A DNA stretch of 64,000 nt from Chloroflexota bacterium (GTDB lineage: Bacteria > Chloroflexota > Chloroflexia > Chloroflexales > Herpetosiphonaceae), in assembly GCA_020161265.1 (NCBI GenBank), contig JAIUOC010000003.1, positions 363,024 to 427,023 on the forward strand, given 5' to 3'. Made by a program: the position numbers and the translations under genes. The notes beneath the pieces are model-generated. The model made no database searches. It was not told the origin of the DNA and saw nothing but the letters and a program-made list of their open reading frames with translations. Shown here piece after piece: positions 35,100 through 57,190 of this stretch (its first letter is position 1; each line of letters starts with the position of its first letter).

Positions 35100-36623
35100 A
35101 TGCAGCGCCGACGATGGATATTAATCGCAATCAGCCTGACGCTGCTTCTAGCGAGTGCTGGCTTGAGTTTAGCTCGCACAACTGGCCTGTTGGATGACCC
35201 GAATTGCACAACCAGCGATTGTACGTTTTTACCGTTGGCCTTGAAAAATTCTAGTGAAATTACGCCAATGCCAACAAATGCGGCAACCGCAACCAGTGTG
35301 ATGCTCTCGCCAACTGCAACATCGAGCACTACCCCAACCGCCGCGCCAACCGCAACCAGTACCTCAACTAATGTGCCAACTGCGACGAACACCGCAACCG
35401 ATGTGCCAACCGCGACGAACACACCAACTGCTGTACCAACCGCAACCAGTACGCCAACCGACGTGCCAACTGCGACCAATACACCAACTGATGTGCCAAC
35501 CGCGACCAACATACCAACTGATGTGCCAACCGTGACCAACACACCAACCCATACATCAACGCCAACGAGTACATCAACCCATACATCAACGCCGACCAGC
35601 ACGGCTACGGCAACCCCACGTCCACCAACCACCACCCCAACCACGATTGTGGGTACGGCGACCCCAACCACACCGCCCAACTTCACACGGATTGTTTGGT
35701 CTACGGCTGTGCCAACACCATTTAGCTATCCTTTTGCGGCGGTTGAAGCTCAAGGCGCAGTGGTTGGCGGCAAATTGTATGTCTTTGGTGGCTTCGGTCA
35801 GCCTGGTTTATCGGGCGATACACCCTCGCGCTTGTCGAACGTGTATGATCCAGTGGCCAATACCTGGACAGCGATTGCGCCCTTGGAGCGAGGTTTGACT
35901 CACGTTGGTACTGCCACCGATGGTCAAAAGATCTTCCTTGTTGGTGGCTATATTGAAGATTTTGATGGAGTTGGCCAGATTTTCGGCTCACGGGTTTCGC
36001 GCTATTACGACACCGCCACCAATACCTACACCAACTTGCCGGTGATTCCGATTCAACGGGCGGCGGGCCAGCTGTATTATCTTGATCGGAAGTTGCATTA
36101 TGTTGGTGGAACCTATTACAAACAGGTTGATGTTGGCACGCATTTTGTGCTCGATTTGAATGATTTGGCGACTGGTTGGGTGACCCAGACCAACCAACTA
36201 ACCTATGCCGAGTTGCCCAATCCACGTCAACATGCTGGTGGGGTGGTGCTTGATGGCAAACTCTACTATATTGGCGGTCAGCATGGCCACGATGGTAGTT
36301 TAACCGTCGATAACGATGTGCATCGCTATGATCCCGCTACGAATATGTGGGAACAAATGGCCGATATTCCGTTGGCCTTGAACCATATTAGCCATTCGAC
36401 CTTGGCGCTTGGCGGTAAAATTTTCGTCTTTGCTGGCCAAACCACCAACGGAACTAAACATAATACGATTTATGTGTATGATCCGGCCACGAATACTTGG
36501 GCACAAATGCCTAACAACTTGCCAGCAACCCGTTATTCAGGCATTATTGGCGAGATTAATGGCACGTTGTATTTCACGACTGGCGGCGGAACCAACAGCT
36601 ATCGTGGAATTCCCACACCATAG
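35100..36623 (+). CDS. secreted/surface protein with signal anchor, Thr/Pro-rich repeat linker and C-terminal Kelch (galactose-oxidase-like) beta-propeller
   Basis: N-terminal hydrophobic segment. ([10 protein letters not shown])n linker. Kelch signatures [50 protein letters not shown]. Confidence 0.75.
35340..35601 (+). repeat. in-frame tandem repeat: about 7 x 30 bp (encoding [10 protein letters not shown]) followed by 2 x 27 bp (HTSTPTSTS)
   Basis: Direct reading: ccaactgatgtgccaaccgcgaccaacaca units with point variants. Confidence 0.8.
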
Positions 36624-36670
36624 CATTATTTTGCAGGGCGTTGGTCGCGTTTGGCGGCCAACGCAAAACT

Positions 36671-37726
36671 ATGAGTATCACGATCTATCCAATTCCGCGT
36701 TTGCTGGCAACCAACCCATATCTTGATTTGTTGTATGCGCCATTTGCTGCATGGCCTGATGTGCAGATTGCACGCCAGCCATTTGCTCAAACCTTGCGCC
36801 ATGGCTTGTTGCATGGCGGTCAGCGGGTGCTGCATTGGCACTTTTTTGATGAACTGACCCAGCAGCCCAGCCAAGCGGCAACTGCATTGCGTAGTATGAG
36901 CTTTATTGTGCTATTGCGTTTGCTGGCTTTGCGTGGAGCAAAATTGGTTTGGACGGCTCACAACTTGGAGCCACACGAATTGCGTTACCCCCAATGGGCG
37001 CAGCGTTGTTATCAGGCTATGGCGCAGGCGGCTGAGCAAATTATTGTACATTCGCAGGCCGCCGCCCAACTGCTCGATCAACGCTATCAGGTTGCCGCTA
37101 AAACCAACGTGATTGCCCATGGCTCGTATATCGGTGTCTATGGCGAAGCTTGGGATCAAGCGGCTGCCCGTGAGCAATTGCAACTAACGCCCAAAGGCTT
37201 TGTTGCGCTCAATCTTGGCACATTGCGTCCCTACAAAGGTGTGGAATTGTTGCTTGAGGCTTGGTCAGCCGAGCTTGGCCGCTTGCTGATTGTGGGTGCG
37301 GCCAAAGATCAACGCTATGCTGAGCAATTGCAACAACAGGCAACCAATCCTAGCATCACGCTACGGCCCCAGTTTATTGCCGATGCCCTTCTGCCTGCTT
37401 GGTTTGCCGCCTCCGATGTGGTCGTATTGCCCTATCGCAAAACCTTGACCTCAGGCATGTTGCTGGCAGCGCTTTCGTATGCCACGCCAGTGGTTGCGCC
37501 TGATTTGCCGCCAGTCCGCGAATTGATTCGCGATGGCGAGAATGGCTTTTTGTTTGAGGCCAACGATGTGGCTAGTTTACGCGCCGCTTTACACCGTGCC
37601 GCCGCCCATCCCGATCGACAAGCTTTGCGCCAAAATGCGCTCCAAACAGTTCAAGCGCTTGATTGGAGCCTGATTGCCAACCAAACTGCGGCAGTTTATC
37701 GCCGTTTATTCGAGAAACCCGCATGA
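36671..37726 (+). CDS. glycosyltransferase family 1 (GT4-like)
   Basis: Start MSITIYP. C-terminal GT1 motifs (VVLPYRKTLTSGMLLAALSYATPVVAPDLPPVRELIRDGENGFLFE). Confidence 0.8.
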   Translation: MSITIYPIPRLLATNPYLDLLYAPFAAWPDVQIARQPFAQTLRHGLLHGGQRVLHWHFFDELTQQPSQAATALRSMSFIVLLRLLALRGAKLVWTAHNLEPHELRYPQWAQRCYQAMAQAAEQIIVHSQAAAQLLDQRYQVAAKTNVIAHGSYIGVYGEAWDQAAAREQLQLTPKGFVALNLGTLRPYKGVELLLEAWSAELGRLLIVGAAKDQRYAEQLQQQATNPSITLRPQFIADALLPAWFAASDVVVLPYRKTLTSGMLLAALSYATPVVAPDLPPVRELIRDGENGFLFEANDVASLRAALHRAAAHPDRQALRQNALQTVQALDWSLIANQTAAVYRRLFEKPA

Positions 37727-38652
37727 TTCCAGGCCAAATTTCGATCATCATCGTGAGCTATAACAGCGCCGCACTATTGCCCGCTTGTTTTGCAAGCCTC
37801 GCCACGACCAACGACGACAATTATCAATTAATTGTGGTTGATAATGCTTCGAGCGATGGCTCTGCTGAGTTGGTACGTCAGCAGTATCCGCAGGTTCAGC
37901 TGATTGCCAATCAGCATAATCATGGCTTTGGTGCGGCATGTAATCAAGGTATGGCGGCGGCGACTGGCGAATATTTTTTATTTTTCAATCCCGATGTACA
38001 AATTACGCCCAATTGGCTGACACTCTTGCGCCAGCACCTAGCAGCCAATCCCCAAGCGGCAATTATTTGCCCAACCACCTTGTATCCCAATCAAGCGCCG
38101 CCAACCCGTCATGGTGTGGCGATCACGGCGGCTGTGCCAGGCTGTGCAATGCTTTTGCGGCGCAGCGCATGGCAAGCAATTGGCGGTTTTGACCCAGCTA
38201 TTTTCTTGTATTGGGAAGATACCGAGTTGTGTTGGCGGGCGTGGTTGTTGGGTTGGCAGGTGCTCGAAGATTTCGAGGCGCTGGTGGTACACGAGCGTGG
38301 TGGTAGCGGCGGCGGCCAGCGCTGGCTGGTCGAGAGCAGCAAGAATGGCTTGTATTGCTACCTGAAGTTGCGGCCTTGGTCGGCGGTTTTGGGCTATAGC
38401 CTGCGCATGCTGGCCAAAACGGCGATTGTAAGTTTGTGCCAGCGCAATCTGGCAATGCTGAATGTTTGGATTTGGCATATTCGTAATCTCAAGCAAACCC
38501 TCGCCACGCGCCGCAGCATTCAAGCCCAAATCAGCGCTGATCGCAGCGAAGTTGAGCGTTTGATCAAGCAGCATTTAGCGCGTGGCAAACGGGAACGCAA
38601 CGAAAATCAAAAGTCAAAAGGCAAAAGTCAGAAGGCAAAAGGCAAAAGTTAG
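37723..38652 (+). CDS. glycosyltransferase family 2, with a repeat-derived Lys-rich C-terminal tail
   Basis: ATGA overlap with GT1. IIIVSYNSAALL...VVDNASSDGS (GT2 DXD region). The last about 20 codons (RERNENQKSKGKSQKAKGKS) are encoded by a CAAAAG-type simple repeat. Confidence 0.8.
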   Translation: MIPGQISIIIVSYNSAALLPACFASLATTNDDNYQLIVVDNASSDGSAELVRQQYPQVQLIANQHNHGFGAACNQGMAAATGEYFLFFNPDVQITPNWLTLLRQHLAANPQAAIICPTTLYPNQAPPTRHGVAITAAVPGCAMLLRRSAWQAIGGFDPAIFLYWEDTELCWRAWLLGWQVLEDFEALVVHERGGSGGGQRWLVESSKNGLYCYLKLRPWSAVLGYSLRMLAKTAIVSLCQRNLAMLNVWIWHIRNLKQTLATRRSIQAQISADRSEVERLIKQHLARGKRERNENQKSKGKSQKAKGKS

Positions 38653-38662
38653 AAGGCAAAAG
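38603..38662. repeat. left arm of an inverted repeat pair (AAAATCAAAAGTCA...GAAGGCAAAAGG); partner at 39648-39677
   Basis: The reverse complement of 39648-39677 (ataaaatcaaaagtcagaaggcaaaaaaaa) matches this segment. Confidence 0.4.
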
Positions 38663-38935
38663 GATGAGACTGGATAGCGCAGAGACGCAGAGGATTCGAG
38701 GGGCTAGGATTCAGAATTTAACGGAGAGACGCAGAGGATTCGAGGGGCTAGGATTCAGGGGTCACAGGGGCTGGAAATTTAAGCATAATCATATAAATCT
38801 GGGTCAATCTGTGGCTAAAAATAAAACTTCGCGATCTTCGCGCCCTTCGTGGTTTCAACCCTCGCACCCTTCGTGTCCTTCATGCGCTTCGTGGATCGAT
38901 ATTCATTCGCTGGCCTGGGTTAATATTGAGGAGAT
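38653..38935. repeat. mosaic intergenic repeat R4, including a 45-bp direct duplication and the conserved CTTCGYG element
   Basis: agagacgcagaggattcgaggggctaggattcag occurs twice (38681-38714 and 38726-38759). cttcgcgatcttcgcgcccttcgtggtttcaaccctcgcacccttcgtgtccttcatgcgcttcgtggatcg at 38828-38900. Confidence 0.6.
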
Positions 38936-38939
38936 GTAG

Positions 38940-39443
38940 ATGAACATAACAATTGTTGATGGCTTTACTCCAACCAATGAGGCTGAAGTTGCGGCTTTTG
39001 AGCAAGAGTTGGGCTGTCGTCTGCCAGAAGATTACCGCGCTTTTTTGCTACAACATAACGGCGGTCAGCCTGAGCTAACAGTTTTTGATATGAATAGTAA
39101 CTTGCTGCCTGATGATCAAAGTATAATCCACTATTTTTTATCCTTAGACCCAGCAGCGGAATCCTCTGAAATTCGTCAAGTAATCAGAACATTTACAGAA
39201 TATGAGACGCGGATTCCACCAGAGCTTTTGCCAATTGCCCACGATCTTGGAGGCAACCTAATTTGCTTGGGAATTCGTGGCGAGCAGCGGGGCAAAGTTT
39301 ATTTTTGGGATCATGAATTTGAGCTAGAAACTGAAGAAGAAGGCGATCTGTATTACAACGTTTCGTGTTGTAGCCCTTCATTTCAAGCATTCGTTGATAG
39401 CTTGTTGCCTGAATCCTCGCTTGATGTTGACGAGGCAGCATAG
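38940..39443 (+). CDS. SMI1/KNR4 (SUKH-1) family protein, immunity-protein-like
   Basis: 167 aa. LPEDYRAFLLQHNGG, IGD-like LGGNLICLGIRGEQRGKVYFWDHE, acidic C-terminus. AT-richer than its surroundings. Confidence 0.75.
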   Translation: MNITIVDGFTPTNEAEVAAFEQELGCRLPEDYRAFLLQHNGGQPELTVFDMNSNLLPDDQSIIHYFLSLDPAAESSEIRQVIRTFTEYETRIPPELLPIAHDLGGNLICLGIRGEQRGKVYFWDHEFELETEEEGDLYYNVSCCSPSFQAFVDSLLPESSLDVDEAA

Positions 39444-40317: not shown

Positions 40318-40509
40318 GCCGTTTGTCCTCCATTGTTCGCAAAAGGGGAGCAAAGAACAACTAGTTCTTTGCCCCCATCTGCGCCTATTGTACCTGATTA
40401 TGCTGGTTTTGCATGCGCTGGTTTTGCTCTTGACAGGGCCATATCGCTCTACTACTGTATAGCCACGCTGCAATCATCCCAAAAAAATTAGCGCTGAGGA
40501 GTTTGCACT

Positions 40510-41406
40510 ATGGGTATTCGTGGCTTATTTGTGGGAATCAATAGTTATAGCGAGCGGCCACTCAAGGGTTGTGTCAACGATGTAAGCGTAGTTCGTGAGT
40601 TGTTCAAAGCCCAACACGCTGCTGCCGATGATCAACTGCGTTTGATCACCGATGCTGCGGCTACGCGCCAAGCTATTATTGATAATTTGGGCTGGCTCGC
40701 CGAACCGCTCAACGATGGGCAGCCGGAAATTCGAATTTTTCACTATGCTGGCCATGGCGTACAACAGCCTGATCAAAATGGCGATGAACCTGATGGTGCT
40801 GATGAATGCCTCGCGCCAATTGATTATCCCAGCGCTGGCTTGCTGAGCGATGACCATTTAGCCGAGCTATATCAAGGATTTTTGGGTACAACGCGGCTCA
40901 TTTTGTTGATGGATTGCTGTCATTCGGGCACGATCAGCAAAGACCCTTTTTCCGATATTCGGTATCGCACCTTAACTCCCGCCAAAGTGGTTTATGATGA
41001 AATTCGTGCCAAGAAGCAGGCCTATCAACAACACCAGGTTGATAGCGTAGCGCAACAAATTCTTGATCTGCAACAACGGAGCGCCGACCCCAGCGAAATT
41101 GCTAAGTTTGCAGGCGAGTTGGTCAGTTCGTTGCAAAAACAGAGTTTTGGCCAACGCCCACAGCACGAAAACACCATTTTGATTTCAGCCTGCAAGGCCG
41201 AGCAAGTTGCCGCCGATGCCAATTTTGGCGGAACCTACCACGGTGCCATGACCTTCTTTTTGAAAAATATTCTCAGCGAAAATCCCCAAATTAGCTATGC
41301 CAACCTTGGCGAACAGCTTCGCCGTAGCCTCTACGACAATAAGTTTCAACAAATTCCCCAACTTGAGTGCCCAAATAGTCTAATTAACCAGCCCTTCCTA
41401 CGTTAA
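40510..41406 (+). CDS. caspase-like peptidase (C14 family, metacaspase/HetF-type)
   Basis: Catalytic dyad context HYAGHG (His) and LLMDCCHSG (Cys). 298 aa, no signal peptide. Confidence 0.8.
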   Translation: MGIRGLFVGINSYSERPLKGCVNDVSVVRELFKAQHAAADDQLRLITDAAATRQAIIDNLGWLAEPLNDGQPEIRIFHYAGHGVQQPDQNGDEPDGADECLAPIDYPSAGLLSDDHLAELYQGFLGTTRLILLMDCCHSGTISKDPFSDIRYRTLTPAKVVYDEIRAKKQAYQQHQVDSVAQQILDLQQRSADPSEIAKFAGELVSSLQKQSFGQRPQHENTILISACKAEQVAADANFGGTYHGAMTFFLKNILSENPQISYANLGEQLRRSLYDNKFQQIPQLECPNSLINQPFLR

Positions 41407-41473
41407 TTAACTAAGCAGCCAATTGCTAGGCGATTGGCTGCCCTCATCGATCACGCTGCACTGAGGAGCTTGT

Positions 41474-42487
41474 ATGAGTTCAGATCATGCTCACGATTGT
41501 CCATGTGCTGATCCTATCACCCAATTACGCCAGCTCTTTGTCAACAGAACTATGGGCACGCGGATTAACGCCGGACAAGATCCGGTTCGACGGGCGGTGT
41601 TTCTTAAGGCGCATGGCGGGGCCAAAGCCACCTGGTGGGTTCGCCCTGATTTGCCAGCCGAGCTACGAGTTGGCTTGTTGGCCTACGATCAGCTGGCAGC
41701 ATGGCTGCGCTTTTCCAGCGATACCGTGCCTTTTGCCAGCGACCTTGGCACAACCTTGGGGGTAGGCATCAAGCTGTTTGGTATACACGGCCGTAAATTA
41801 TTAACTGGTGAAGAAGCTGCATTAACTCACGATTTGGTCTTGCAAAATTATCCAGTCTTTTTTGTCGATACTGCCAAGGATATGTGCGAATTTACCTACG
41901 AAGGCTTGGTGGGTGATGGCTATGATGCGTATCTCGCCAAACACCCCAAAACCCGCAAAATTCTCGATTTGATGCAGCAAAATCTGGCCAGTGTCTTCGA
42001 TGCAGTGTATTGGAGCGGCCTGCCCTATGCGTTTGGCCAAGGTCGTTACGTCAAATATCGCTTGGCGCTTGAAGCGCTCAATCCACAGCCACCCAGTAAC
42101 CCACAGCTCAACCCCAACTTTTTGCACGATGATTTGCGTAGTCGTTTGTTGGCAGGCCCGATTGATCTGCACTTTAGCATTCAACTACGCACCAATCCTA
42201 AGCTGATGCCGTTGGATGCAGCAACCGTCGAATGGTCAACCGAGCTAGCCCCGCCGCTGCATGTGGCAACCCTAACCCTGCCCCAACAAGATATTGATGC
42301 GCCTGGCCAAGCCGCCTATGTCGAAAATCTGGCCTTCAATCCTTGGCATGCACTGCCTGAACATGCTCCAGTTGGCAGCATCAGTGAAGCTCGCAAAGTA
42401 GTCTATCAAGCTTCGGCGGAGTTGCGCCGCCAACGCAATGGCATTCCGATTGTGGAGCCACGCCAACCTCGTCACGATTTAACCTAG
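41474..42487 (+). CDS. catalase-related (mini-catalase/allene-oxide-synthase-like) haem protein, putative
   Basis: Distal-His-like RRAVFLKAHGGAKATWWV. Proximal haem-ligand motif R-x3-Y-x2-S/A-x3-R (RKVVYQASAELRR). About 337 aa, the size of small catalase-related proteins. Confidence 0.45.
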   Translation: MSSDHAHDCPCADPITQLRQLFVNRTMGTRINAGQDPVRRAVFLKAHGGAKATWWVRPDLPAELRVGLLAYDQLAAWLRFSSDTVPFASDLGTTLGVGIKLFGIHGRKLLTGEEAALTHDLVLQNYPVFFVDTAKDMCEFTYEGLVGDGYDAYLAKHPKTRKILDLMQQNLASVFDAVYWSGLPYAFGQGRYVKYRLALEALNPQPPSNPQLNPNFLHDDLRSRLLAGPIDLHFSIQLRTNPKLMPLDAATVEWSTELAPPLHVATLTLPQQDIDAPGQAAYVENLAFNPWHALPEHAPVGSISEARKVVYQASAELRRQRNGIPIVEPRQPRHDLT

Positions 42488-42527
42488 CCCTCCAAAATGC
42501 TTGAATGGTTTACAAGGAGATGTGATT

Positions 42528-44465
42528 ATGGCTTGTGCTGAGATTGTCAGCGTCGCGATTTATCCTCCCGTTGGCTTTGCCCGCGTCGGAAATAGCCCAA
42601 ATGAGTTTTTTTATGGCCCCGAAGTGCTGGGTGCACCCCAAGTTGACCCCGATTTGTTTCGCGATCCGAGTGGCGCGATCAAACGCCAAGCGGCGCGGTT
42701 TCGGGTTTATGGCTTGAATGCCGCTGGTGAGGTGATTTGCGAGTTAAACCAAACCAATCCTGATGTGCAAGAAATTGTTTGGACGGCGCAGCTCGCCAAT
42801 CAAAAAGCCGCGTGGTATGAATTTATCCAAGCACTGGATATTCCGGCCTCGGCTGATGGCAAAATTGTTAGCAAGCGCCGCAATGCCGATGTAACTGAGC
42901 GCGATCAATTGACGATCGATGGTGGCACGCGCAGCATTTGTGGCTTGAATGTCAATCCTCAGGGCGAAGAGGCGATCTATGCCTTTGATCACGGCGCATT
43001 CTTTGGTAAGCAAGTTTATTTGGGCGAATTGCGCACCGATCAACAGGGCAATTTGATTGTGCTGGGCGGGCGGGGTCACTCAGCTTCGGCCCATGGCAAG
43101 CCCTTAACCACCTTTGCCGATAACGATGATTGGCATGATGATACTGCCGATGGCCCGATTGAGGCCGTGGTTAAGCTGAGCGATGGACGGGTTTTGCAGG
43201 CAACTCATGCTTGGGTGATTGTTGCGCCGCCTGATTATGCGCCAGGCACAAATTCGATTATGACAGGCTATGATTTGCTGTTTGAAGTGGCGATGCAGCT
43301 TGATTCGACGCTTGCGCCAGCCAAGCCACGTTTCAGCAGCGAAATTTATCCGTTGCTCTCACGGTTTAGCCAATTGCAATGGGTTAATGCTGGCTTTGCG
43401 CGGAGTTTTGGTTGGGGCAGCCCCAGCGATTTCAATAATCCTGAGTTGATCGCTCGTTTGGGCGATCCTAGTGCTGCCAGCGAACCGTTGCGCCAAGCGG
43501 TTTTGGCTCAAATGCGCAATCCTAGCAATCCCTATATTGATCCCGAAGGCTTGCCATTGTTTTATGGCGATGCGATTACGCTCAACACCAAAACCACCGA
43601 TCCCCAAGAGTGGCAGGCAATTTTGCCTAGCCAATATCGTTGGCTAGAGCAATGGGCCAATGGCGATTTTATTGCCGATGGCTTGCCCGTGGTCAGGCCG
43701 TGGGAGCAGCTTGATCCCGCTGAGCAGGCCTACAATCTCACGCGGGCGGCGCTTGATGCAACCTTGGGCGGGCCGTTTCACCCCGGCTGCGAATTCACTT
43801 GGCCGTTACGCCATACCTCGATGTATGTAGCACCATTTCGACTCAAACGCCGCACCAGCCCTGAGCCAGATTGGGGCGATACGCTCGATGCGGCTACTGC
43901 CTTAGCTCCCGATGGGATGTTGTATGCCAGCGCTGCTGGGGCAATTACGCGTTGGATGGCCGTGCCTTGGCAAACCGATACCTCAAGCTGTCTCTCGGCC
44001 TATATGGGCTATGCCGGAACTTATTTGCCAACTTTTTGGCCCGCTCGTGTGCCCAACGATGTGCTTAGCCAAGAGAGCTACCAGATTATTATGAACCCTG
44101 ATGCTACGCCTGAAGAGCGTGCCCAAGCCTTCGCACCGACTGCCCGCCGCAAGTGGCTGCGCGGCATGGTCTACACCGAGAGCATTCCACCAGGCCATAT
44201 TCCAACCGTGCCAGCAATTACTAAATTTACCAACGAATGGGATACCGTGGGCATTATCATCGCCCAAACTGGGCCTGAACATAGCGCTAGCTTCCCGCAA
44301 ACGCTATGGGTTGAAACAGGCCGCCACGTTGAAGCTCAGGCTCCCCAATTAACCCGTAGCCTAGCCGCCGAGCCAGAAACTGATCTGGTTGATAGCGACC
44401 TCAATTGGCCACAACAACGCCTCAAGCGAGGACGCAAAAATGCTGCCGAAGCCAATAACGATTGA
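42528..44465 (+). CDS. LodA-like amino-acid oxidase (CTQ quinoprotein family; L-lysine epsilon-oxidase / glycine oxidase GoxA relatives)
   Basis: AAGGAGA RBS. N-terminal LodA signature IYPPVGFARVGNS. Conserved Asp-x3-Cys (WQTDTSSC) with a Trp about 60 residues downstream (RRKWLRG), as for the cysteine tryptophylquinone pair. Confidence 0.65.
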   Translation: MACAEIVSVAIYPPVGFARVGNSPNEFFYGPEVLGAPQVDPDLFRDPSGAIKRQAARFRVYGLNAAGEVICELNQTNPDVQEIVWTAQLANQKAAWYEFIQALDIPASADGKIVSKRRNADVTERDQLTIDGGTRSICGLNVNPQGEEAIYAFDHGAFFGKQVYLGELRTDQQGNLIVLGGRGHSASAHGKPLTTFADNDDWHDDTADGPIEAVVKLSDGRVLQATHAWVIVAPPDYAPGTNSIMTGYDLLFEVAMQLDSTLAPAKPRFSSEIYPLLSRFSQLQWVNAGFARSFGWGSPSDFNNPELIARLGDPSAASEPLRQAVLAQMRNPSNPYIDPEGLPLFYGDAITLNTKTTDPQEWQAILPSQYRWLEQWANGDFIADGLPVVRPWEQLDPAEQAYNLTRAALDATLGGPFHPGCEFTWPLRHTSMYVAPFRLKRRTSPEPDWGDTLDAATALAPDGMLYASAAGAITRWMAVPWQTDTSSCLSAYMGYAGTYLPTFWPARVPNDVLSQESYQIIMNPDATPEERAQAFAPTARRKWLRGMVYTESIPPGHIPTVPAITKFTNEWDTVGIIIAQTGPEHSASFPQTLWVETGRHVEAQAPQLTRSLAAEPETDLVDSDLNWPQQRLKRGRKNAAEANND

Positions 44466-45510
44466 TTGTTTGATCGTTGGCGGCGGAATTGCTGGCTGCG
44501 CCTGTGCCGTGCATCTCGCACGGCATGGGTGGCAGGTGCTTGTGCTCGAACGCCCGCCTACACGGCCACAACGCTTTGGTGAAAGTTTAGCGCCTGCCGC
44601 TCGTCCGTTGGTGCACGAGCTTGGGTTAGATCTTGATCGAGAGCATTCGATTTGCCCAGGCAATCTGGCAGCTTGGGGATCAGATGCGCTCTATCATCAT
44701 GATTTTTTGGCAACGCCCTATGGTCATGGCTGGCATCTCAATCGACCTCATTTTGAGCAGCAGCTCCACCAGTGCTGCCTTGGATTAGGCGTAACATTCA
44801 GTTCAGCGTCAATCAGCTACCTCGAACGCCAGCCCGAACGCTGGATTATTGGGGTTGGAGAGCAATTATTTCAAACGCGCTGGCTGATTGATGCCACTGG
44901 CCGAGCACGTTGGCTAGCACGGCGGCTGGGAGTACAAACCCAGTTCGATGGCCCCAAACAGCTCGGTTTGGTGGCGATGCTGGAGCCGCAAGCCCAGCCA
45001 TGGCCGGATCAGCGGAGTTTGGTCGAGGCGGTAGCTGATGGTTGGTGGTATGTGGCGCGAGTGCCGCAAGCCCAAATGGCGACAATTTTTATTGGTCAAC
45101 CAACCACCAACCAACGCCAAAAGCTTGCTCAGGCCGAGGGTTGGTGGCAATCGCTCAAGCGCAGCACTTGGGCCAAACAATGGCTTGAGCAACATCAGCT
45201 TTGTGCCCAACCATATTGGGTCGATGCCAGCAGCAGTCGTTTGGATCGCTGCTATGGCAATGGTTGGCTGGCGATCGGTGACGCGGCCATGAGCTATGAT
45301 CCGCTGGCGGCGCATGGGATTACAGTTGGATTAACCAGCGCCCGTGATGCCGCCCAATGTTTAATCGCTGCCAACCAAGGCTCAGTTGCTGCGCTGTATG
45401 GCTATGGTCATCAGCTGGAATTGGCTTGGCACGCTTATCGTCAGCTTCGCCAACAGATCTATGCCCAAGAACAGCGCTGGCCTGATCGCCCATTTTGGCA
45501 ACCACGCTAG
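44440..45510 (+). CDS. LodB-like FAD-dependent flavoprotein (cofactor-maturation partner of LodA-type oxidases)
   Basis: Overlaps the 3' end of lodA-like by 26 nt. FAD fingerprint CLIVGGGIAGCACAVHLARHG...VLVLER. Halogenase/GG-reductase-like fold. 356 aa. Confidence 0.6.
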   Translation: MLPKPITIDCLIVGGGIAGCACAVHLARHGWQVLVLERPPTRPQRFGESLAPAARPLVHELGLDLDREHSICPGNLAAWGSDALYHHDFLATPYGHGWHLNRPHFEQQLHQCCLGLGVTFSSASISYLERQPERWIIGVGEQLFQTRWLIDATGRARWLARRLGVQTQFDGPKQLGLVAMLEPQAQPWPDQRSLVEAVADGWWYVARVPQAQMATIFIGQPTTNQRQKLAQAEGWWQSLKRSTWAKQWLEQHQLCAQPYWVDASSSRLDRCYGNGWLAIGDAAMSYDPLAAHGITVGLTSARDAAQCLIAANQGSVAALYGYGHQLELAWHAYRQLRQQIYAQEQRWPDRPFWQPR

Positions 45511-45712
45511 CAAAAACCCTGAATTATGCTAAGATGCAGCAATCAAATTTTTGGCTGCTGCATGGAGTCAAACTCGTCCATACACTCCACCCATCAATTG
45601 CTCCATCACCCACAGCAGCATGCTTCAATCTGCTACGTTTGCTAGAGAATCAAACGTTGGTAGCCACAATTGTTGTGTGAGTTGAATTCCATTTGGCTTG
45701 GAAGGAGCTACG

Positions 45713-47086
45713 ATGGGCCATGATCATGCGCTGGTTATCGGCGCAAGCATTAGCGGTTTAGCGACCGCGCATATCCTCAGCCACTATTTTGCTCAAGTAA
45801 CGATTATTGAACGTGATAGTTTGCCCGACTCGATTGAGGTTCGATCTGGTTTGCCGCAAGCTCGCCACCTGCATCTGTTGTTGATGCGCGGAGCGCGTGA
45901 GCTTGAAACGCTCTTTCCTGGCATTGGGCAAGAACTCGTGGCTCACGGCGCACAGTCGGTCGATTTGATGAATGATTATCGCTACTTGATGGCTGGTGGT
46001 TGGGCCAAACCGCATCAATCAGCCCATCGCACAATTTCGGCCAGCCGCCCGCTCTACGATTGGGTGCTGTTGCAGCGTTTACGCCAAAACCCCAAAATTC
46101 GGATCGAAACCCAAACCGATGTGCTTGGCTTGGTTGGGGATTTGCGCCATGTGCGGGGCATTAACACCAAGCGCCGCGATACTGGGGTTGAGCAACAATT
46201 TCTAGCCGAACTCTTGGTTGATTGTAGTGGGCGTTCATCCAAGCTTGATCAATGGCTACAAGCGCTGGGTTGCCAAGCAGTACCCGAAACCGTGATTGCC
46301 TCGAATGTTGGCTACTGCTCACGACTCTATGCCAAGCCCGAAGGCTGGAACGAATGGAAGGGCTTATTTGTGCGCCAGCGACCATTGGTTAATCCACGCG
46401 GCGCGATTTTAACCGAGATTGAAGGCAATCGCTGGATGGTGACCTGTGGTGGTTTTAATGAGGCCAAGCCACCCCTTGATGAGAGCGAATGGCTGAATTG
46501 GCTCAACCAATTGCGCTCGCCAATTTTGTATGAATTGTTGAGTAAGGCCCAGCCAATTAGCCCATTGGTTGGTTTTGGCCGTACCGAAAATCGCCAACGC
46601 CATTATGAGCAAATTAGCCTGCCTGCGGGAGTGGTGGCGTTGGGTGATGCTGTTTGTGCGTTTAATCCAATTTATGGACAAGGTATTAGCAATGCCACCT
46701 TGGGCGCGATCTTGCTGAGCCAGCATTTAAAAGAACAAGATCGGGCTTCGGCAGCCTGGGGTCAGCGCTTTCAACAAGCACTCGCTAAAAGCAATCAATT
46801 TCCTTGGAGCATTGCGGTGGGCGAAGATGCCCGCTATAACGCCAGCGTCAAGCGTTCGTTTGGCGCAACTCTGCTGCGCAACTACTTCGACCAAATTAAC
46901 CTAGCATCAAGCAATAATCCGGTTGTGCTCAACCGCTTCACGCCGATTGTGCATATGACTGGCAATCCCAGTGGCTTACTGCACCCAGCGATGATCTGGA
47001 ATGTTATTAAAGGTCGCTTGAAGCCCCAAACGACCAACCCAACGCCCTCGATCCCTACCATTCTCAGCGCTAGCCAAGGAGCGTAA
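45713..47086 (+). CDS. class A FAD-dependent monooxygenase-like flavoprotein, paralog 1 of 3
   Basis: AAGGAG RBS. GxGxxG (VIGASISGL), DG-type motif (LVDCSGRSSKL), GD motif (LGDAVCAFNPIYGQGIS). Confidence 0.75.
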   Translation: MGHDHALVIGASISGLATAHILSHYFAQVTIIERDSLPDSIEVRSGLPQARHLHLLLMRGARELETLFPGIGQELVAHGAQSVDLMNDYRYLMAGGWAKPHQSAHRTISASRPLYDWVLLQRLRQNPKIRIETQTDVLGLVGDLRHVRGINTKRRDTGVEQQFLAELLVDCSGRSSKLDQWLQALGCQAVPETVIASNVGYCSRLYAKPEGWNEWKGLFVRQRPLVNPRGAILTEIEGNRWMVTCGGFNEAKPPLDESEWLNWLNQLRSPILYELLSKAQPISPLVGFGRTENRQRHYEQISLPAGVVALGDAVCAFNPIYGQGISNATLGAILLSQHLKEQDRASAAWGQRFQQALAKSNQFPWSIAVGEDARYNASVKRSFGATLLRNYFDQINLASSNNPVVLNRFTPIVHMTGNPSGLLHPAMIWNVIKGRLKPQTTNPTPSIPTILSASQGA

Positions 47087-47088
47087 CC

Positions 47089-48450
47089 ATGCTACAAGAT
47101 CATGCAATTGTGATTGGAGCCAGTATCAGCGGCTTGATTACCGCTCATATGCTGAGCCACCATTATGGTCGAGTCAGTGTGCTCGAACGTGATAGCTTGC
47201 CCGAGGCTGGCGATTTTCGCGCGGGCGTGCCCCAAGGTCGCCATGTGCATTTGTTGCTGATTCGCGGCGCACGTGAGCTGGAAACGCTTTTTCCAGGCAT
47301 CAACCAAGAACTGCAAGCTCTTGGGGCACAAGCCGTCGATATGATCAACGATTGTCGCTATTACCTCAAAAATGGCTGGACAGTACCTCAGCCAACCGAA
47401 TTGAAAACGCTCTCGGCAACTCGCCCTTTGTTTGATTGGGCAATTCGGCGGCGCTTATTGCAAAACCCCAAGATTCAGTTTTTGGCCCAACACGATGCCC
47501 TGAATCTGATTGGCAATAGCCGTCATATTCAAGGGGTGCAGGTGCGCAATCGCCAAGATGGCAGCGAACAGAGCTTGCATGCTGATCTGGTTGTCGATGC
47601 CAGCGGGCGCAATTCCAAATTGGCGGAATGGTTGGGCGAGCTTGGTTGTGGCAAAGTTAGCGAAACTGTGCTTGATGCCAAACTTGGCTATACTTCGCGG
47701 CTCTATGCCAAGCCCGAAGGTTGGAAAGAATGGAAAGGCCTGTTTGTGATGCAACAGCCGCCGACCATTCCCAAAGGTGCGATTTTGCTCGAAGTTGAGG
47801 GCAATCGCTGGATTGTGACTGGCGGTGGGGTCAATCATGCCAAGCCACCAACCGATGAAGCTGGTTTTATGCAATGGCTGCGCGAATTGCCCTCGCCAAT
47901 TTTGGCCGATTTATTGAGTAAATCGCAGCCGCTTAGCCCAACCAGTGGCTATGGTCGTACCGAAAATCGCCAACGCCACTACGAGCGTATGCACCTGCCA
48001 GCCGGAGTAATTGCCTTGGGTGATGCCGTTTGTGCCTTTAATCCGGTGTATGGGCAAGGTATTAGCACCGCCACCTTGGGGGCAATCTTGCTTGGTACAC
48101 ATTTAAAAGAGCAAGATCGTGGCTCGGCAGCATGGGGCCAGCGGTTCCAACAAGCCTTAGCCAAGAACAATCAATTCCCTTGGGAAATGGCGAGCGGCGA
48201 GGATTCGCGTTATGATTCATCATTCAAACGCCCATTTTTCAGCAAGCTGATTGCGCCCTATTTTGATCAAATTAATCAGGCCAGTTTGAATAGCAACGTG
48301 GTGTTCACTCAATTTATTAAAACGATTCACCTGATCGACAATCCGAATGCATTGTTTCATCCACGGGTGTTTATCCCCGTGCTGCTGAGCAAAATTCGGC
48401 CTAAATATTCTGATGCAGTGCCAAACTTGCCTTTGCAGGTCAACGTATAG
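47089..48450 (+). CDS. class A FAD-dependent monooxygenase-like flavoprotein, paralog 2 of 3 (about 65% identical to paralog 1)
   Basis: Same three motifs (VIGASISGL; VVDASGRNSKL; LGDAVCAFNPVYGQGIS). Starts 2 nt after the paralog-1 stop. Confidence 0.75.
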   Translation: MLQDHAIVIGASISGLITAHMLSHHYGRVSVLERDSLPEAGDFRAGVPQGRHVHLLLIRGARELETLFPGINQELQALGAQAVDMINDCRYYLKNGWTVPQPTELKTLSATRPLFDWAIRRRLLQNPKIQFLAQHDALNLIGNSRHIQGVQVRNRQDGSEQSLHADLVVDASGRNSKLAEWLGELGCGKVSETVLDAKLGYTSRLYAKPEGWKEWKGLFVMQQPPTIPKGAILLEVEGNRWIVTGGGVNHAKPPTDEAGFMQWLRELPSPILADLLSKSQPLSPTSGYGRTENRQRHYERMHLPAGVIALGDAVCAFNPVYGQGISTATLGAILLGTHLKEQDRGSAAWGQRFQQALAKNNQFPWEMASGEDSRYDSSFKRPFFSKLIAPYFDQINQASLNSNVVFTQFIKTIHLIDNPNALFHPRVFIPVLLSKIRPKYSDAVPNLPLQVNV

Positions 48451-48524
48451 CATAGGCAACTGAATCAAGCCCTGCTATACTACTAGAATAGGCAGGAGTA
48501 CATTTCAGATTTGGGAGGTGTGCT

Positions 48525-49883
48525 ATGAGACGAGACCATGCGATTGTGATCGGGGCCAGCATCGGTGGATTATTGAGTGCCCGCGTGTTGAGTGATGTGT
48601 ATGCCAAAGTGACGATTTTGGAGCGCGATACGTTGCCCGATGGGGTGCAATTTCGGGCAGGCGTGCCGCAAGGTCGCCAATTGCACTTGCTGCTGATGCG
48701 CGGCTTGCTCGAATTAGAAAAACTGTTCCCCAAATTGCGCGAAGATATGAAGGCGCTTGGCGGCAACGAGCTGGATCTGATGAACGATTGCCGCTATTTA
48801 TTTGCGGCAGGCTGGGCCGAACCACGACCCTCGGATTATCGCAGCATCATCGCCACCCGCCCCTTGTTCGATGCAGCGATTCTTGGGCGGATTCGCCAAA
48901 TTCCCAATATTGAAATTCAAACTCGCCAAGAAGTGACGGATTTGCTCTTTCACGGGCGGCAAGTTGTCGGGGTCAAGCTGCGCAATCGTGATACTGGCGA
49001 GCAGCATGAACTTAACGCCAACTTGGTTGTCGATGCGGCTGGCCGCCCATCCAAGCTGCCCGAATGGCTAGAACAACATCAATTTGGGCGCGTCAAAGAG
49101 ACCATTTACAAATCGGATGTGGGTTATGCCACCAGAATGTACACCGCGCCAGCCGATTGGCAAGGCTGGCCAGCGATCTTTGTGATGCCGATGCCGCCGC
49201 ATATTCGCCATGGTGCAACCTTCCTTAAAGTTGAAAACGATCAATGGCTCTTGACGATTGGCGGAGTTGGCAGCCAGCGCCCACCAACCGATAGCGCTGA
49301 GTTTGAGGCTTGGCTGGCGCGGATGCGCACACCATTGATTGCTGAAATTACCCAGAAATTTACGCCTGCCAGCCAAGTGTATGGCTATGCCAAAACCGAA
49401 AATCGTTGGGTGCATTACGAACAACTACCCGTTATGCCCGCTGGCCTGATTGCTATTGCCGATAGCGTGTGTGCCTTGAATCCAATTTATGGCCAAGGCA
49501 TCACCAATACTGCCATGAGCACGCAGGTTTTGGCCAAGCATTTGCAACGCGAAGGCATTGGCAGCGCACCTTGGGCCTTGAGTTTCCAAAAAGCCTTGGC
49601 ACGCCGCAACAAAGCGGGCTGGCTCACCACCATCAGCGAAGATTCACGGCTGGCTGATACGCCAACCTATCGCCCAATCTTGCCGATTCGCGTGCTGCAA
49701 TGGTATAGCGATAAAGTGAATTTGGCGGCGGCGGGCAATCGGGCTGCTACCAACGCAATGGTTGGTGCGATTCATATGATTGGCTCAGCTGCGAGCTTAT
49801 TTACGCCCAAAGTATTGCTTGCCGCCTCGCGCTTTTTCCGTTCACAACCGCCAAGCAGTGTGCCAGCAGCACCCAATAAATAA
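48525..49883 (+). CDS. class A FAD-dependent monooxygenase-like flavoprotein, paralog 3 of 3 (more divergent)
   Basis: GGGAGG RBS. VIGASIGGL; VVDAAGRPSKL; IADSVCALNPIYGQGIT. Confidence 0.75.
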   Translation: MRRDHAIVIGASIGGLLSARVLSDVYAKVTILERDTLPDGVQFRAGVPQGRQLHLLLMRGLLELEKLFPKLREDMKALGGNELDLMNDCRYLFAAGWAEPRPSDYRSIIATRPLFDAAILGRIRQIPNIEIQTRQEVTDLLFHGRQVVGVKLRNRDTGEQHELNANLVVDAAGRPSKLPEWLEQHQFGRVKETIYKSDVGYATRMYTAPADWQGWPAIFVMPMPPHIRHGATFLKVENDQWLLTIGGVGSQRPPTDSAEFEAWLARMRTPLIAEITQKFTPASQVYGYAKTENRWVHYEQLPVMPAGLIAIADSVCALNPIYGQGITNTAMSTQVLAKHLQREGIGSAPWALSFQKALARRNKAGWLTTISEDSRLADTPTYRPILPIRVLQWYSDKVNLAAAGNRAATNAMVGAIHMIGSAASLFTPKVLLAASRFFRSQPPSSVPAAPNK

Positions 49884-49984
49884 TCTAGCTGCGCCTTGAT
49901 CACCGTTGATCGAGGCGCAGGCATATCGGCTGTGGCCTGAATCTTGCCTTAACCTAGGCATAGAATAGTGGTGTAACAGGAGGT

Positions 49985-50554
49985 ATGCAACCTATGAGTC
50001 ATCATCTCAATGGTAAACGGGTGGCGATTATCGCAACTCATGGCTTTGAACAGAGCGAGCTTGAAGAACCCAAAGCGGCCTTAGAGCAAGCCGGAGCCAA
50101 AACCCATGTTATTTCGCTCAAGGCTGGCACGATTCGTGGCTGGAAAGAGCAAGATTGGGGCAGTGAAGTTGCTGTCGATTATACGCTTGAGCAAGTTAAT
50201 CCTGCTGATTATGATGGGTTGTTGTTGCCTGGCGGCGTGATGAACCCCGATAAATTGCGGCGCGAAACCAGCGTTTTGAATTTTGTACGAGCCATGGCCG
50301 AAGCTGGCAAGCCAATTGCGGCAATTTGCCATGGCCCATGGACATTGATTGATGCTGGAATTGCCAAAGGCCGCATGCTCACATCGTACCCAACCTTGCA
50401 AAACGACCTGAAAAATGCGGGAGCCGAGTGGGTTGATCGCGAGGTCGTGGTCGATAATGGCCTGGTGACCAGCCGCAATCCCCAAGATATTCCCGCCTTC
50501 AATCGCAAATTTATTGAAGAATTAGGCGAAGGTTTACATAAACAAGTTGGCTAA
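49985..50554 (+). CDS. DJ-1/PfpI family protein (intracellular protease/deglycase type)
   Basis: Nucleophile elbow AAICHGP. LLPGG. 189 aa. Start possibly at 49994. Confidence 0.85.
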   Translation: MQPMSHHLNGKRVAIIATHGFEQSELEEPKAALEQAGAKTHVISLKAGTIRGWKEQDWGSEVAVDYTLEQVNPADYDGLLLPGGVMNPDKLRRETSVLNFVRAMAEAGKPIAAICHGPWTLIDAGIAKGRMLTSYPTLQNDLKNAGAEWVDREVVVDNGLVTSRNPQDIPAFNRKFIEELGEGLHKQVG

Positions 50555-50571: not shown

Positions 50572-50615
50572 AATGGCCCCGTAGTTTAGGATAAGCTACG
50601 GGGCCATTTCATTTA
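50572..50615. terminator. bidirectional intrinsic terminator (AATGGCCCCGTAG ... CTACGGGGCCATT + TTCATTT)
   Basis: 13-bp perfect inverted repeat between the convergent DJ-1 and Nudix genes. Confidence 0.55.
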
Positions 50616-53320: not shown

Positions 53321-54469
53321 TTGGCTCACCTGAGGTTGGAAATGAACGAAATTGAAACGCTCGATTTTGAAATTCGGGCTTTGATGAAGGCGGGTGTTCG
53401 CCCGATTGACCCCGATGACGATAGTTTGTTTAATGATTTAGCCTTGCGCACGTTTCGCTATCAATGGCAACATAATCTGGTGTATCAGCGCTATTGCGAA
53501 CGGCGGATGCTCAGCCCTGAGCGCGTAAAGCATTGGTCGGAGATTCCGGCTGTGCCAACCACGGCCTTCAAGCATCTGCCATTAACGACCTTCCCGCCTG
53601 AAGAAGCCCAGGCGATTTATCGCACCAGCGGTACAACTCAAGGCAGCGAACAACGCGGCACGCACTATATTCGCGATCGCTCGTTGTATGAAGCGTCGTT
53701 ACGGCCAAATTTAGCCTATCATCTGTTTCCCGATGCTAAACGCCTGCCAATCTATGTGCTTTTCTGGCATCCCAATGAGCTACCACAATCGTCGCTAGCG
53801 CATATGATCAGCGATGCGGTTGAGCAGCATGGCACAGCTGAAAGCCGCTATGTGTTTAGCGCAGCTGGTTTGGATTCAGCCAGCCTCGCCGAGTCGCTTG
53901 ATGCAGCGGTTGCCACCAATACTTCGGTGTGTTTGATGGGCGTAATGTATACCTTCGTCTATTTTTTAGATTGGTGCGCCGAGCATGGCAAGCGTTGGCA
54001 ATTGCCCAAAGGTAGCCGTTTGATGGATACGGGCGGCTCCAAAGGCAAAGTGCGCGAAATTGCCCGCAACGATCTTTATGCGCTCTACAGCGAAGTTTTG
54101 GGTATTCCATCGACCATGTGTGTCAATGAATATGGTATGACCGAGTTGGGCAGTCAATTCTACGATTGCTCGTTACACTCGGCCTACCTGCGCGAATGGC
54201 AACCACGCCATAAGGTGATTGTACCTTGGGTTCGCACCCAGATCGTCGATCCAACCACCTTTGCGCCATTGCCTGCTGGCCAAACTGGGCTATTACGCCA
54301 CCTTGATTTGGCCAATCTCTACTCGGTACTCGCTTTGCAAACCGAAGATTTAGGCGTGGTTGTGGCTGATGGGTTTGAGGTGCTTGGTCGGGCCAGCGGC
54401 GCAGAATTGCGCGGTTGTTCGCTGGCGGTTGAAGATGTTCTCGCCGCTCGCCGGAATGGCAACGGCTAA
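53321..54469 (+). CDS. LuxE/PaaK-like adenylate-forming acyl-protein synthetase family protein (putative)
   Basis: YRTSGTTQGS P-loop-like adenylation motif. N-terminal region with the FK motif typical of the LuxE family. About 375 aa. Start possibly at 53342. Confidence 0.45.
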   Translation: MAHLRLEMNEIETLDFEIRALMKAGVRPIDPDDDSLFNDLALRTFRYQWQHNLVYQRYCERRMLSPERVKHWSEIPAVPTTAFKHLPLTTFPPEEAQAIYRTSGTTQGSEQRGTHYIRDRSLYEASLRPNLAYHLFPDAKRLPIYVLFWHPNELPQSSLAHMISDAVEQHGTAESRYVFSAAGLDSASLAESLDAAVATNTSVCLMGVMYTFVYFLDWCAEHGKRWQLPKGSRLMDTGGSKGKVREIARNDLYALYSEVLGIPSTMCVNEYGMTELGSQFYDCSLHSAYLREWQPRHKVIVPWVRTQIVDPTTFAPLPAGQTGLLRHLDLANLYSVLALQTEDLGVVVADGFEVLGRASGAELRGCSLAVEDVLAARRNGNG

Positions 54470-54513
54470 TCTAGTGATAAGGAGCCAGTAGCCGCTTGGC
54501 TATAGACTCGCCT

Positions 54514-56912: not shown

Positions 56913-57190
56913 GCCGCCTACCTCCGCAGGATGGGTAAATGGCCAAAAGCTAACGCACTCATCGCGGTTGGCTGCGGAGTTAGCAGAAGTTGCCAAAGCC
57001 AAGACCACAATATGAAGCGTCTTTGAATATTCGCCAAACGTATGTAGTTAATTGTGAGTGGTTATATCACAAACCAATTGATCTATTTTTGGATATAACC
57101 ACAATACCACCGATTGTAGGTTTGCTAAAGTAGCAATTTAGTAGCCAAACCAACCGCTGATTTGGCTAGTATCAAGACGGATTTACCAGT

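Follow-up and report, generated by a model that had tools for sequence, protein, structure and literature searches.

Do eight genes that follow one another on the same strand, with a LodA-like quinoprotein oxidase among them, form one oxidative system, or have separate units come to lie side by side? The question is raised by positions 40510-50554 of the 64-kb window analyzed here (the whole stretch of DNA, 64,000 nucleotides of contig JAIUOC010000003.1, from a member of the Herpetosiphonaceae). An earlier note on this DNA had proposed a single eight-gene unit. The eight consecutive same-strand genes that it described are recovered as plus-strand open reading frames (ORFs) whose gene calls all hold in profile searches, and profile, fold and motif evidence bears out the identity it gave to each. 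Our reading of the whole is different: the region is probably a juxtaposition of independent units and not one eight-gene system, with a mobile three-gene cassette (catl-lodA-lodB) set amid older Herpetosiphon genes. A row of eight same-strand genes is not unusual in itself. All eight occur in the same order, with 94-98% amino acid identity, in Herpetosiphon aurantiacus DSM 785 (CP000875, locus L001), where the counterpart of the LodA-like protein, Haur_0883, is 98% identical. The genes, the cassette and the spacer that follows it are:

40510-41406, + strand: single-domain caspase-like C14 peptidase, 298 amino acids (Peptidase_C14, 6e-26)
41407-45510, + strand: three-gene cassette catl-lodA-lodB, present in H. 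aurantiacus and not in three other Herpetosiphon genomes
41474-42487, + strand: catl, catalase-like haem protein (y4iL-like 'minicatalase' of the LodA-partner subtype), 337 amino acids (MAP_2744c match)
42528-44465, + strand: lodA, predicted cysteine tryptophylquinone (CTQ) quinoprotein oxidase of the LodA/GoxA family, group III, 645 amino acids (LodA_N and LodA_C)
44440-45510, + strand: lodB, LodB/GoxB-type flavoprotein, predicted CTQ maturase (GoxB, LodB and QhpG models)
45511-45712, + strand: ancestral caspase-monooxygenase intergenic region, now 3' of the cassette (aligns with the caspase-fmoA spacer of the cassette-less loci L081-L083)
45713-47086, + strand: flavin monooxygenase paralogue A (fmoA), MonCI/Lsd18-like (assigned through 60% identity to paralogue B)
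47089-48450, + strand: flavin monooxygenase paralogue B, MonCI/Lsd18-like (matches to MonCI and Lsd18/LasC in the PDB)
48525-49883, + strand: flavin monooxygenase paralogue C (weak FAD_binding_3 match, paralogy)
49985-50554, + strand: DJ-1/PfpI family protein (DJ-1_PfpI, 1e-54; TIGR01382)

The limits of the cassette emerge from comparison with three Herpetosiphon genomes that lack it: a metagenome-assembled genome (L081), H. llansteffanensis (L082) and Herpetosiphon sp. NSE202 (L083), whose loci were retrieved via monooxygenase homologues. The gene order in these loci is a Kelch protein, two glycosyltransferases, uridine kinase (udk), the caspase, two or three monooxygenases, DJ-1 and a convergent NUDIX gene, with 83-94% identity to the window (83-86% for the caspase orthologues, which occupy the same site); catl, lodA and lodB are not found in them by tblastn. 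In junction alignments, similarity to L081-L083 ends a few bases past the caspase stop codon and restarts directly past that of lodB, and the ~200-bp ancestral spacer, with a conserved palindrome, is kept intact ahead of monooxygenase A. Positions 41407-45510 are a 4.1-kb three-gene cassette within an older gene row and extend from the stop codon of the caspase gene to that of lodB. The five outer genes, syntenic without the cassette in three genomes, speak against the eight-gene unit of the earlier note; the caspase, the three monooxygenases and DJ-1 are older Herpetosiphon residents of the site and bystanders to the LodA module.

The converse comparison, of what accompanies LodA elsewhere, covered 79 further loci, those of the best LodA relatives among GTDB species representatives, with flanks of up to 10 kb. 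Homologues of the caspase, the monooxygenases and DJ-1 occur at 0 of these 79 loci (tblastn), so that five of the seven neighbours that the earlier note had joined to the oxidase are missing from related LodA loci; the outer genes were met exclusively in Herpetosiphon loci, three of them without lodA. A lodB-like gene lies downstream of LodA in 65 of the 68 related loci with enough flank. The haem protein has ~220 word-indexed homologues, each either a stand-alone protein of ~340 amino acids or the N-terminal part of a LodA-domain protein. Stand-alone homologues adjoin a LodA_N/LodA_C gene and a lodB-like gene, amid unrelated flanks, in all five contigs examined (L084-L086, L094 and L095; from Rudanella, Moorena, Flavobacterium and two metagenome contigs). 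In one of these split loci lodA is divergent from catl-lodB, and in L095 catl is paired with lodB. At five GTDB loci (L003, L052, L053, L079 and L080), which belong to Brevibacillus, Myxococcaceae, two Pyrinomonadaceae and Pseudonocardiaceae, haem domain and LodA form one continuous reading frame, and a tblastn search of plasmids returned fused Ralstonia/Rhizobium homologues, one of them annotated as 'catalase'. When identities are compared across the five stand-alone cassettes, those of the haem protein (49-58%) exceed those of the oxidase (39-42%) in four; in L094 the order is reversed (47% for the haem protein, 51% for the oxidase). In that metagenomic genome (L094:11441-13062), the cassette is followed by a methyltransferase gene, directly after which come a phage-type integrase and a Y2 transposase, an arrangement that fits mobility of the cassette.

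The catl-lodA-lodB cassette is a genuine self-contained, horizontally mobile module of the group III LodA-like type, met on its own in several phyla. The functional link between catl and lodA appears real, judged by in-frame fusions in other lineages and by split pairs that stand beside LodA and LodB. One observation tells against the link: most of the closest LodA relatives are without a haem partner (present in 4 of 69), so that the partner is dispensable for the family.

The core of this finding is already catalogued. Campillo-Brocal et al. (2015; PMC4417212) list Haur_0883 (645 amino acids) in group III and Haur_0884 (356 amino acids) as its LodB-like partner (Table S1), and the parts of their paper drawn on here describe some LodA-like proteins that have a catalase-like domain at the N-terminus (pfam00199 / cd08152, y4iL-like), place every such catalase fusion in group III, state that no group III protein had been characterized at that date, and attribute demonstrated antimicrobial or autolytic roles to group I enzymes only. 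Haur_0883 carries no additional domains there (it is not in Table 3), and those parts of the paper make no mention of the split-gene form or of the upstream H. aurantiacus gene. The association of catalase and LodA had thus been reported as a group III fusion; the earlier note knew of no described LodA locus of this composition. A recent preprint (bioRxiv 10.64898/2026.03.27.714854) notes the fusion again and speculates on immediate detoxification of H2O2; a literature search for Herpetosiphon LodA, peroxide or caspase returned nothing. The present comparison adds that haem domain and LodA, known since 2015 as a fusion, are also widely encoded by two neighbouring genes. Through its 98% identity to Haur_0883 the window oxidase is placed in group III, and it shares with the group III fusions the LodA subgroup, the partner domain, the Phe/Gln signature described below and a downstream lodB; unlike them, its haem domain is encoded by a separate gene 40 nt upstream, with its stop codon at 42485-42487 and in another frame.

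Whether the cassette was gained or lost, the modules are independent. We favour a gain in the H. aurantiacus lineage, to which three observations point: CP000875 is the sole Herpetosiphon match in the GTDB scan, the nearest LodA relatives after it share only 55% identity and come from Bacteroidota and Brevibacillus, and the cassette is evidently mobile elsewhere. The alternative, in which the ancestor of Herpetosiphon already had the cassette and other lineages lost it by a precise deletion, draws on the points that weigh against a gain. The GC content of the cassette (0.53-0.56) and its GC content at third codon positions (GC3; 0.52-0.53) are only slightly above the flanks and near host values; no mobility genes, flanking repeats or target duplications adjoin it, terminal direct and inverted matches being short and at chance level; and L081-L083 are about equally distant from the window and could be one clade, in which case a single loss would be enough. 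We nevertheless regard ancestral presence as somewhat unlikely: it has to account for borders that fall on two stop codons, with the full ancestral spacer kept on one side, as well as for the single Herpetosiphon match, the distant relatives in other phyla, and the integrase and transposase beside the L094 cassette. Base composition was also considered as a sign of horizontal transfer and was dropped, GC and GC3 being near flank values.

The oxidase itself matches LodA_N (PF17990, 7.7e-77) and LodA_C (PF18417, 2.6e-36), so that the LodA-family profile matches on which the earlier note had staked its identification are found at 42528-44465. Its scores against the NCBIfam equivalogs are far below the cut-offs (GoxA, 436.8 bits against a cut-off of 750; LodA, 200.8 against 600), and its substrate is therefore not assignable. 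The predicted CTQ residues are Cys488 and Trp504, together with Asp484: the segment PWQTD-TSSC...FW aligns with PWQSD-AASC...WW of GoxA, with Asp484, Cys488 and Trp504 in register with the Asp, Cys and Trp of that motif, which we take to be the CTQ-site residues of published structures. An Asp-to-Asn variant chain among the GoxA structure matches agrees with this assignment. Homology to LodA_N and GoxA starts at residue 10-12, which leaves no space for a signal peptide, and the sequence gives no sign of a secreted weapon; the predatory or antibacterial H2O2 weapon suggested in the earlier note finds no footing here. The ORF opens at a TTG (42501), and the start at 42528 agrees with the 645-amino-acid Haur_0883.

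The gene directly downstream, taken from 44440 in an ORF that opens at 44389, overlaps the lodA stop codon by 26 nt and scores 240 bits against GoxB (4.7e-71), 200 bits against LodB (7e-59) and 160 bits against QhpG (1e-46), in each case under the equivalog cut-off. The pairing of LodA with a GoxB/LodB-type gene, as previously proposed, is thus upheld. In LodA_N/LodA_C content, in the Asp/Cys/Trp motif and in the flavoprotein gene directly downstream, the pair resembles LodA/LodB (lysine epsilon-oxidase) and GoxA/GoxB (glycine oxidase) of Marinomonas mediterranea; it differs from them in its distance from the equivalogs, its subgroup and its extra haem partner. By analogy with the family, the flavoprotein would hydroxylate Trp504 of the oxidase precursor, which would then cross-link to Cys488 to form CTQ. 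The mature oxidase would deaminate a primary amine or amino acid with O2, yielding an aldehyde, NH3 and H2O2.

The haem protein encoded upstream of lodA has no Pfam match, PF00199 included, at E ≤ 0.01. Used alone as query, it matches MAP_2744c (PDB 3e4w), a 33-kDa catalase-related protein from Mycobacterium avium ssp. paratuberculosis, at 3e-5; a profile of its family gives 7e-10. Foldseek comparison of an AlphaFold model of the 337-residue protein (pLDDT 90.3) places 3e4y first, followed by dozens of true catalases with TM scores of ~0.67. The label 'catalase-related' for 41474-42487 is correct. MAP_2744c is the best match in both sequence and fold, and shares the minimal catalase core of ~300-340 residues and the R-x-x-x-Y motif; the two proteins differ in that identity is ~20%, the LodA-partner clade has a distal Phe and MAP_2744c has no quinoprotein linkage. 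Reportedly, MAP_2744c has negligible catalase activity and good peroxidase activity with organic hydroperoxides. Searched against 1.84 billion representatives, the family profile returned 5368 matches, with stand-alone proteins and LodA fusions as top scorers and, lower down, the broader y4iL-like family, sometimes fused to DyP peroxidase, RoxA-like cytochrome c or patatin. In five proteins of this broader family (P0307, P0329, P0308, P0381 and P0274), a y4iL-like domain with His at the distal position lies C-terminal to DyP-peroxidase, RoxA-like cytochrome c, patatin or LsmAD/ankyrin regions.

Residues of the haem pocket were placed by aligning a profile of 121 domain sequences with residues 123-377 of Escherichia coli KatE; a single-subfamily profile covered the distal-Asn region only, and the larger one was needed for the distal-His region. 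The family motif R-R-d-a-H-a-k-a-h-G aligns with R125...H128 of KatE, H128 being the catalytic distal His, and D-F-l-l-i-n-h-p-v-f-f aligns with D197...N201...P204-F206-F207. The corresponding segments of the window protein are R40-A-V-F43-L-K-A-H47-G and D120-L-V-L-Q124-N-Y-P-V-F-F, so that Phe43 falls in the column of His128 and Gln124 in that of Asn201; Arg307 and Tyr311 of the proximal motif are invariant. The distal-His column holds Phe in 33 of the 121 sequences. These 33 rank among the higher scorers, they take in every LodA fusion, and nearly all of them have Gln-Asn at positions 124/125. The column holds His in 85, which have a hydrophobic residue at the 124 position and include proteins with other fusion partners. 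Among proteins longer than 600 residues, LodA domains are present in 11 of 11 with Phe and in none of the seven scanned with His. This Phe/Gln distal-pocket signature of LodA-partnered minicatalases appears to be the one modestly new result, tempered by the fact that the pocket assignment comes from a profile alignment.

With the distal His replaced by Phe and the distal Asn by Gln, a true self-protecting catalase is unlikely, and we infer that the haem protein is not a catalase. We think that it handles peroxide, or another product, at its source in a peroxidase- or peroxygenase-like manner. It would act in physical contact with the oxidase, with which it shares a polypeptide in many other bacteria. 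The working analogy for such a hand-over of peroxide is the coral allene oxide synthase-lipoxygenase (PDB 1u5u, 3dy5), which the catl profile also matches and in which a catalase-fold haem domain is joined to the oxidase supplying it with peroxide substrate; the relationship is distant (E 1e-3), and the coral enzyme differs in having a lipoxygenase partner and a fatty-acid hydroperoxide substrate. We put forward, tentatively, the possibility that LodA-partnered catalase-fold proteins are a distinct class, obligately associated with a CTQ oxidase, that might use nascent H2O2 as an oxidant on the aldehyde or imine or might complete the cofactor in a MauG-like manner. If so, an oxidase-peroxygenase couple would parallel the coral enzyme, and group III enzymes would be more than plain amino acid oxidases that release H2O2.

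The second of these roles can also be taken as the sole one, with the haem protein a MauG-like maturation factor that completes the tryptophylquinone and is not a catalytic partner. In methylamine dehydrogenase, haem-dependent oxidation by MauG completes the tryptophylquinone, and this precedent for a haem enzyme in tryptophan tryptophylquinone biogenesis, the unusual distal pocket, and the tight linkage of catl to lodA and lodB (including its pairing with lodB in L095) lend the idea some substance. We consider it unlikely, in that a 1:1 fusion with the oxidase, seen in many lineages, is more in keeping with a catalytic partner present in stoichiometric amounts, most LodA-family members (close relatives included) mature without a haem protein, and a catalase-fold, Tyr-ligated haem is unlike that of the di-haem MauG.

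That the haem protein is a genuine catalase, detoxifying H2O2 made by the oxidase, is decidedly improbable. The catalase fold with its Tyr/Arg proximal motif and the fusion to an H2O2-producing enzyme would suit it, and the idea is the one raised in bioRxiv 10.64898/2026.03.27.714854; however, Phe and Gln replace the distal His and Asn across the sampled LodA-partner clade, a His-to-Phe mutant of a true catalase was deposited under the title 'Inactive mutant H54F of Proteus mirabilis catalase' (PDB 3hb6), and PF00199 gives no match at the threshold above. Of the earlier note's proposal of a catalase-related, self-protecting enzyme 5' of lodA, the relationship holds, on the evidence of sequence and fold, and the self-protection is weakened by the Phe/Gln pocket. 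The signature argues against the intuitive idea of a 'built-in catalase' and offers a testable handle on the group III LodA-like enzymes.

The borders of the modules are also marked by predicted hairpins:

41415-41441, + strand: perfect 12-bp hairpin with no U-run, directly 3' of the caspase stop codon (-24.9 kcal/mol for a 70-nt stretch, z = -2.7)
45534-45563, + strand: near-perfect palindrome/hairpin ATGCAGCAAYCAAAWTTTTGGYTGCTGCAT after lodB, retained ahead of monooxygenase A in each Herpetosiphon genome compared
49889-49920, + strand: perfect 14-bp hairpin after monooxygenase C
50572-50608, + strand: 17-bp hairpin with a U-run after DJ-1, facing the convergent NUDIX gene

These positions fit separate transcription units, as predicted from sequence. 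Within the cassette, no stable hairpin lies between catl and lodA, whose 40-nt gap carries a Shine-Dalgarno-like AAGGAG ahead of lodA. On the other side of the balance, all eight genes share one strand and a U-run accompanies the last hairpin only, so that read-through may co-transcribe them. The palindrome at 45534-45563 could be a terminator of the caspase gene or an operator; it has GCAGC...GCTGC ends in common with the hairpin at 41415-41441. The 67-bp caspase-catl spacer and the region upstream of the monooxygenases both contain a ribosome-binding site, ATG, N6 and GATCATGC, together with a GCAGC...GCTGC hairpin, which raised the possibility that the spacer arose as a copy of that region. 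The local alignment score of the two regions, reached by 108 of 500 shuffles, is not significant, and that of a gapped global alignment, reached by 7 of 500, is marginal. A promoter/terminator scan gave fewer matches than in shuffles, and an Rfam scan of 39.5-51.5 kb gave no match.

That all eight genes are one unit, either a protected H2O2 weapon or cell-death device or a pathway in which the monooxygenases tailor the LodA product, is highly improbable and largely refuted by comparative genomics: the shared strand and short spacers, the thematically related oxidative functions, an arrangement kept in both H. aurantiacus genomes and the predatory habit of H. aurantiacus speak for it, but the five outer genes are syntenic without the cassette, the cassette occurs without the outer genes in every other lineage examined, a hairpin stands at each module border with the ancestral monooxygenase upstream region intact, PADLOC finds no defence-system match beyond a generic caspase model, and the oxidase has no space for a signal peptide. 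The eight-gene oxidative weapon fails and does not merit further treatment as a new system. A three-gene cassette placed from stop codon to stop codon within a conserved row is, in turn, a clean example of an arrangement that can mislead guilt-by-association annotation.

Among the outer genes, the caspase-monooxygenase-DJ-1 row is synteny among close relatives only and thus not evidence of shared function. The caspase-like peptidase (PF00656, 91.9 bits) has a His82/Cys137 dyad in the motifs YAGHG (from residue 79) and DCCHSG (from residue 135); its closest relative sampled outside the Herpetosiphon loci (58% identity) has unrelated neighbours, none of them shared with the window. The DJ-1/PfpI protein scores 181 bits against TIGR01382 (cut-off 139), with the nucleophile Cys115 in AICHG.

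The three monooxygenase paralogues are mutually 60, 42 and 44% identical and have weak FAD_binding_3 matches. Paralogue B, the one used to search the PDB, matches the polyether polyene epoxidases MonCI (9e-68) and Lsd18/LasC (~1e-66) over ~370 residues. By homology the three are MonCI/Lsd18-type epoxidase relatives with no detectable link to LodA. Unlike the polyether loci, the 64-kb window has no ORF longer than 861 amino acids and hence no modular polyketide synthase; the row is not set among polyether polyketide synthase or epoxide hydrolase genes, the neighbours being caspase, DJ-1 and NUDIX genes. Homologues of paralogue B number more than 5269, and members of this family (more than 5000) are mostly found outside polyether clusters. 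Cyanobacterial single-copy orthologues adjoin flavodiiron genes: in heterocystous cyanobacteria (L090:7001-12257 and L092:7001-12347), a MonCI-like gene is followed by two flavodiiron genes (Lactamase_B/ODP/Flavin_Reduct) in a conserved arrangement. NSE202 has two of the three monooxygenase paralogues and, at the site of paralogue A, a 44-amino-acid ORF (L083:8414-8548).

Several smaller differences among the Herpetosiphon genomes lie in and around the row. The Kelch gene, glycosyltransferases 1 and 2 and a SUKH gene form a plus-strand block at 35100-39443 of the window; in DSM 785 and L081-L083 the block has the reverse orientation with respect to udk and the caspase gene, which indicates a local inversion in the window strain. 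The udk-caspase spacer is variable: it is short in the window (40340-40510), extends over ~1 kb in DSM 785 (L001:6770-7782), and holds a gene for a 186-amino-acid hypothetical protein in H. llansteffanensis (L082:7847-9068) and one for a 308-amino-acid acetyltransferase-like protein in NSE202 (L083:6105-7481). DSM 785 has a 224-bp insertion between catl and lodA (L001:9753-9985) that the window lacks (site 42480-42490). Pieces of this insertion are found again in L082, within the udk-caspase spacer (77% identity over 90 nt), and in L081, there as an inverted pair, and the insertion may be a small repeated element resembling a miniature inverted-repeat transposable element. Further downstream, the window carries a LuxE-like acyl-protein synthetase gene and two more ORFs (53321-57008) between a response-regulator gene and a 496-amino-acid ORF (57191-58681), the length of which equals that of the M17 peptidase of the other genomes, a comparison made by length only. 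Where this block lies, H. llansteffanensis and NSE202 carry TetR and Lactamase_B_2 genes instead, which makes 53321-57008 another local replacement.

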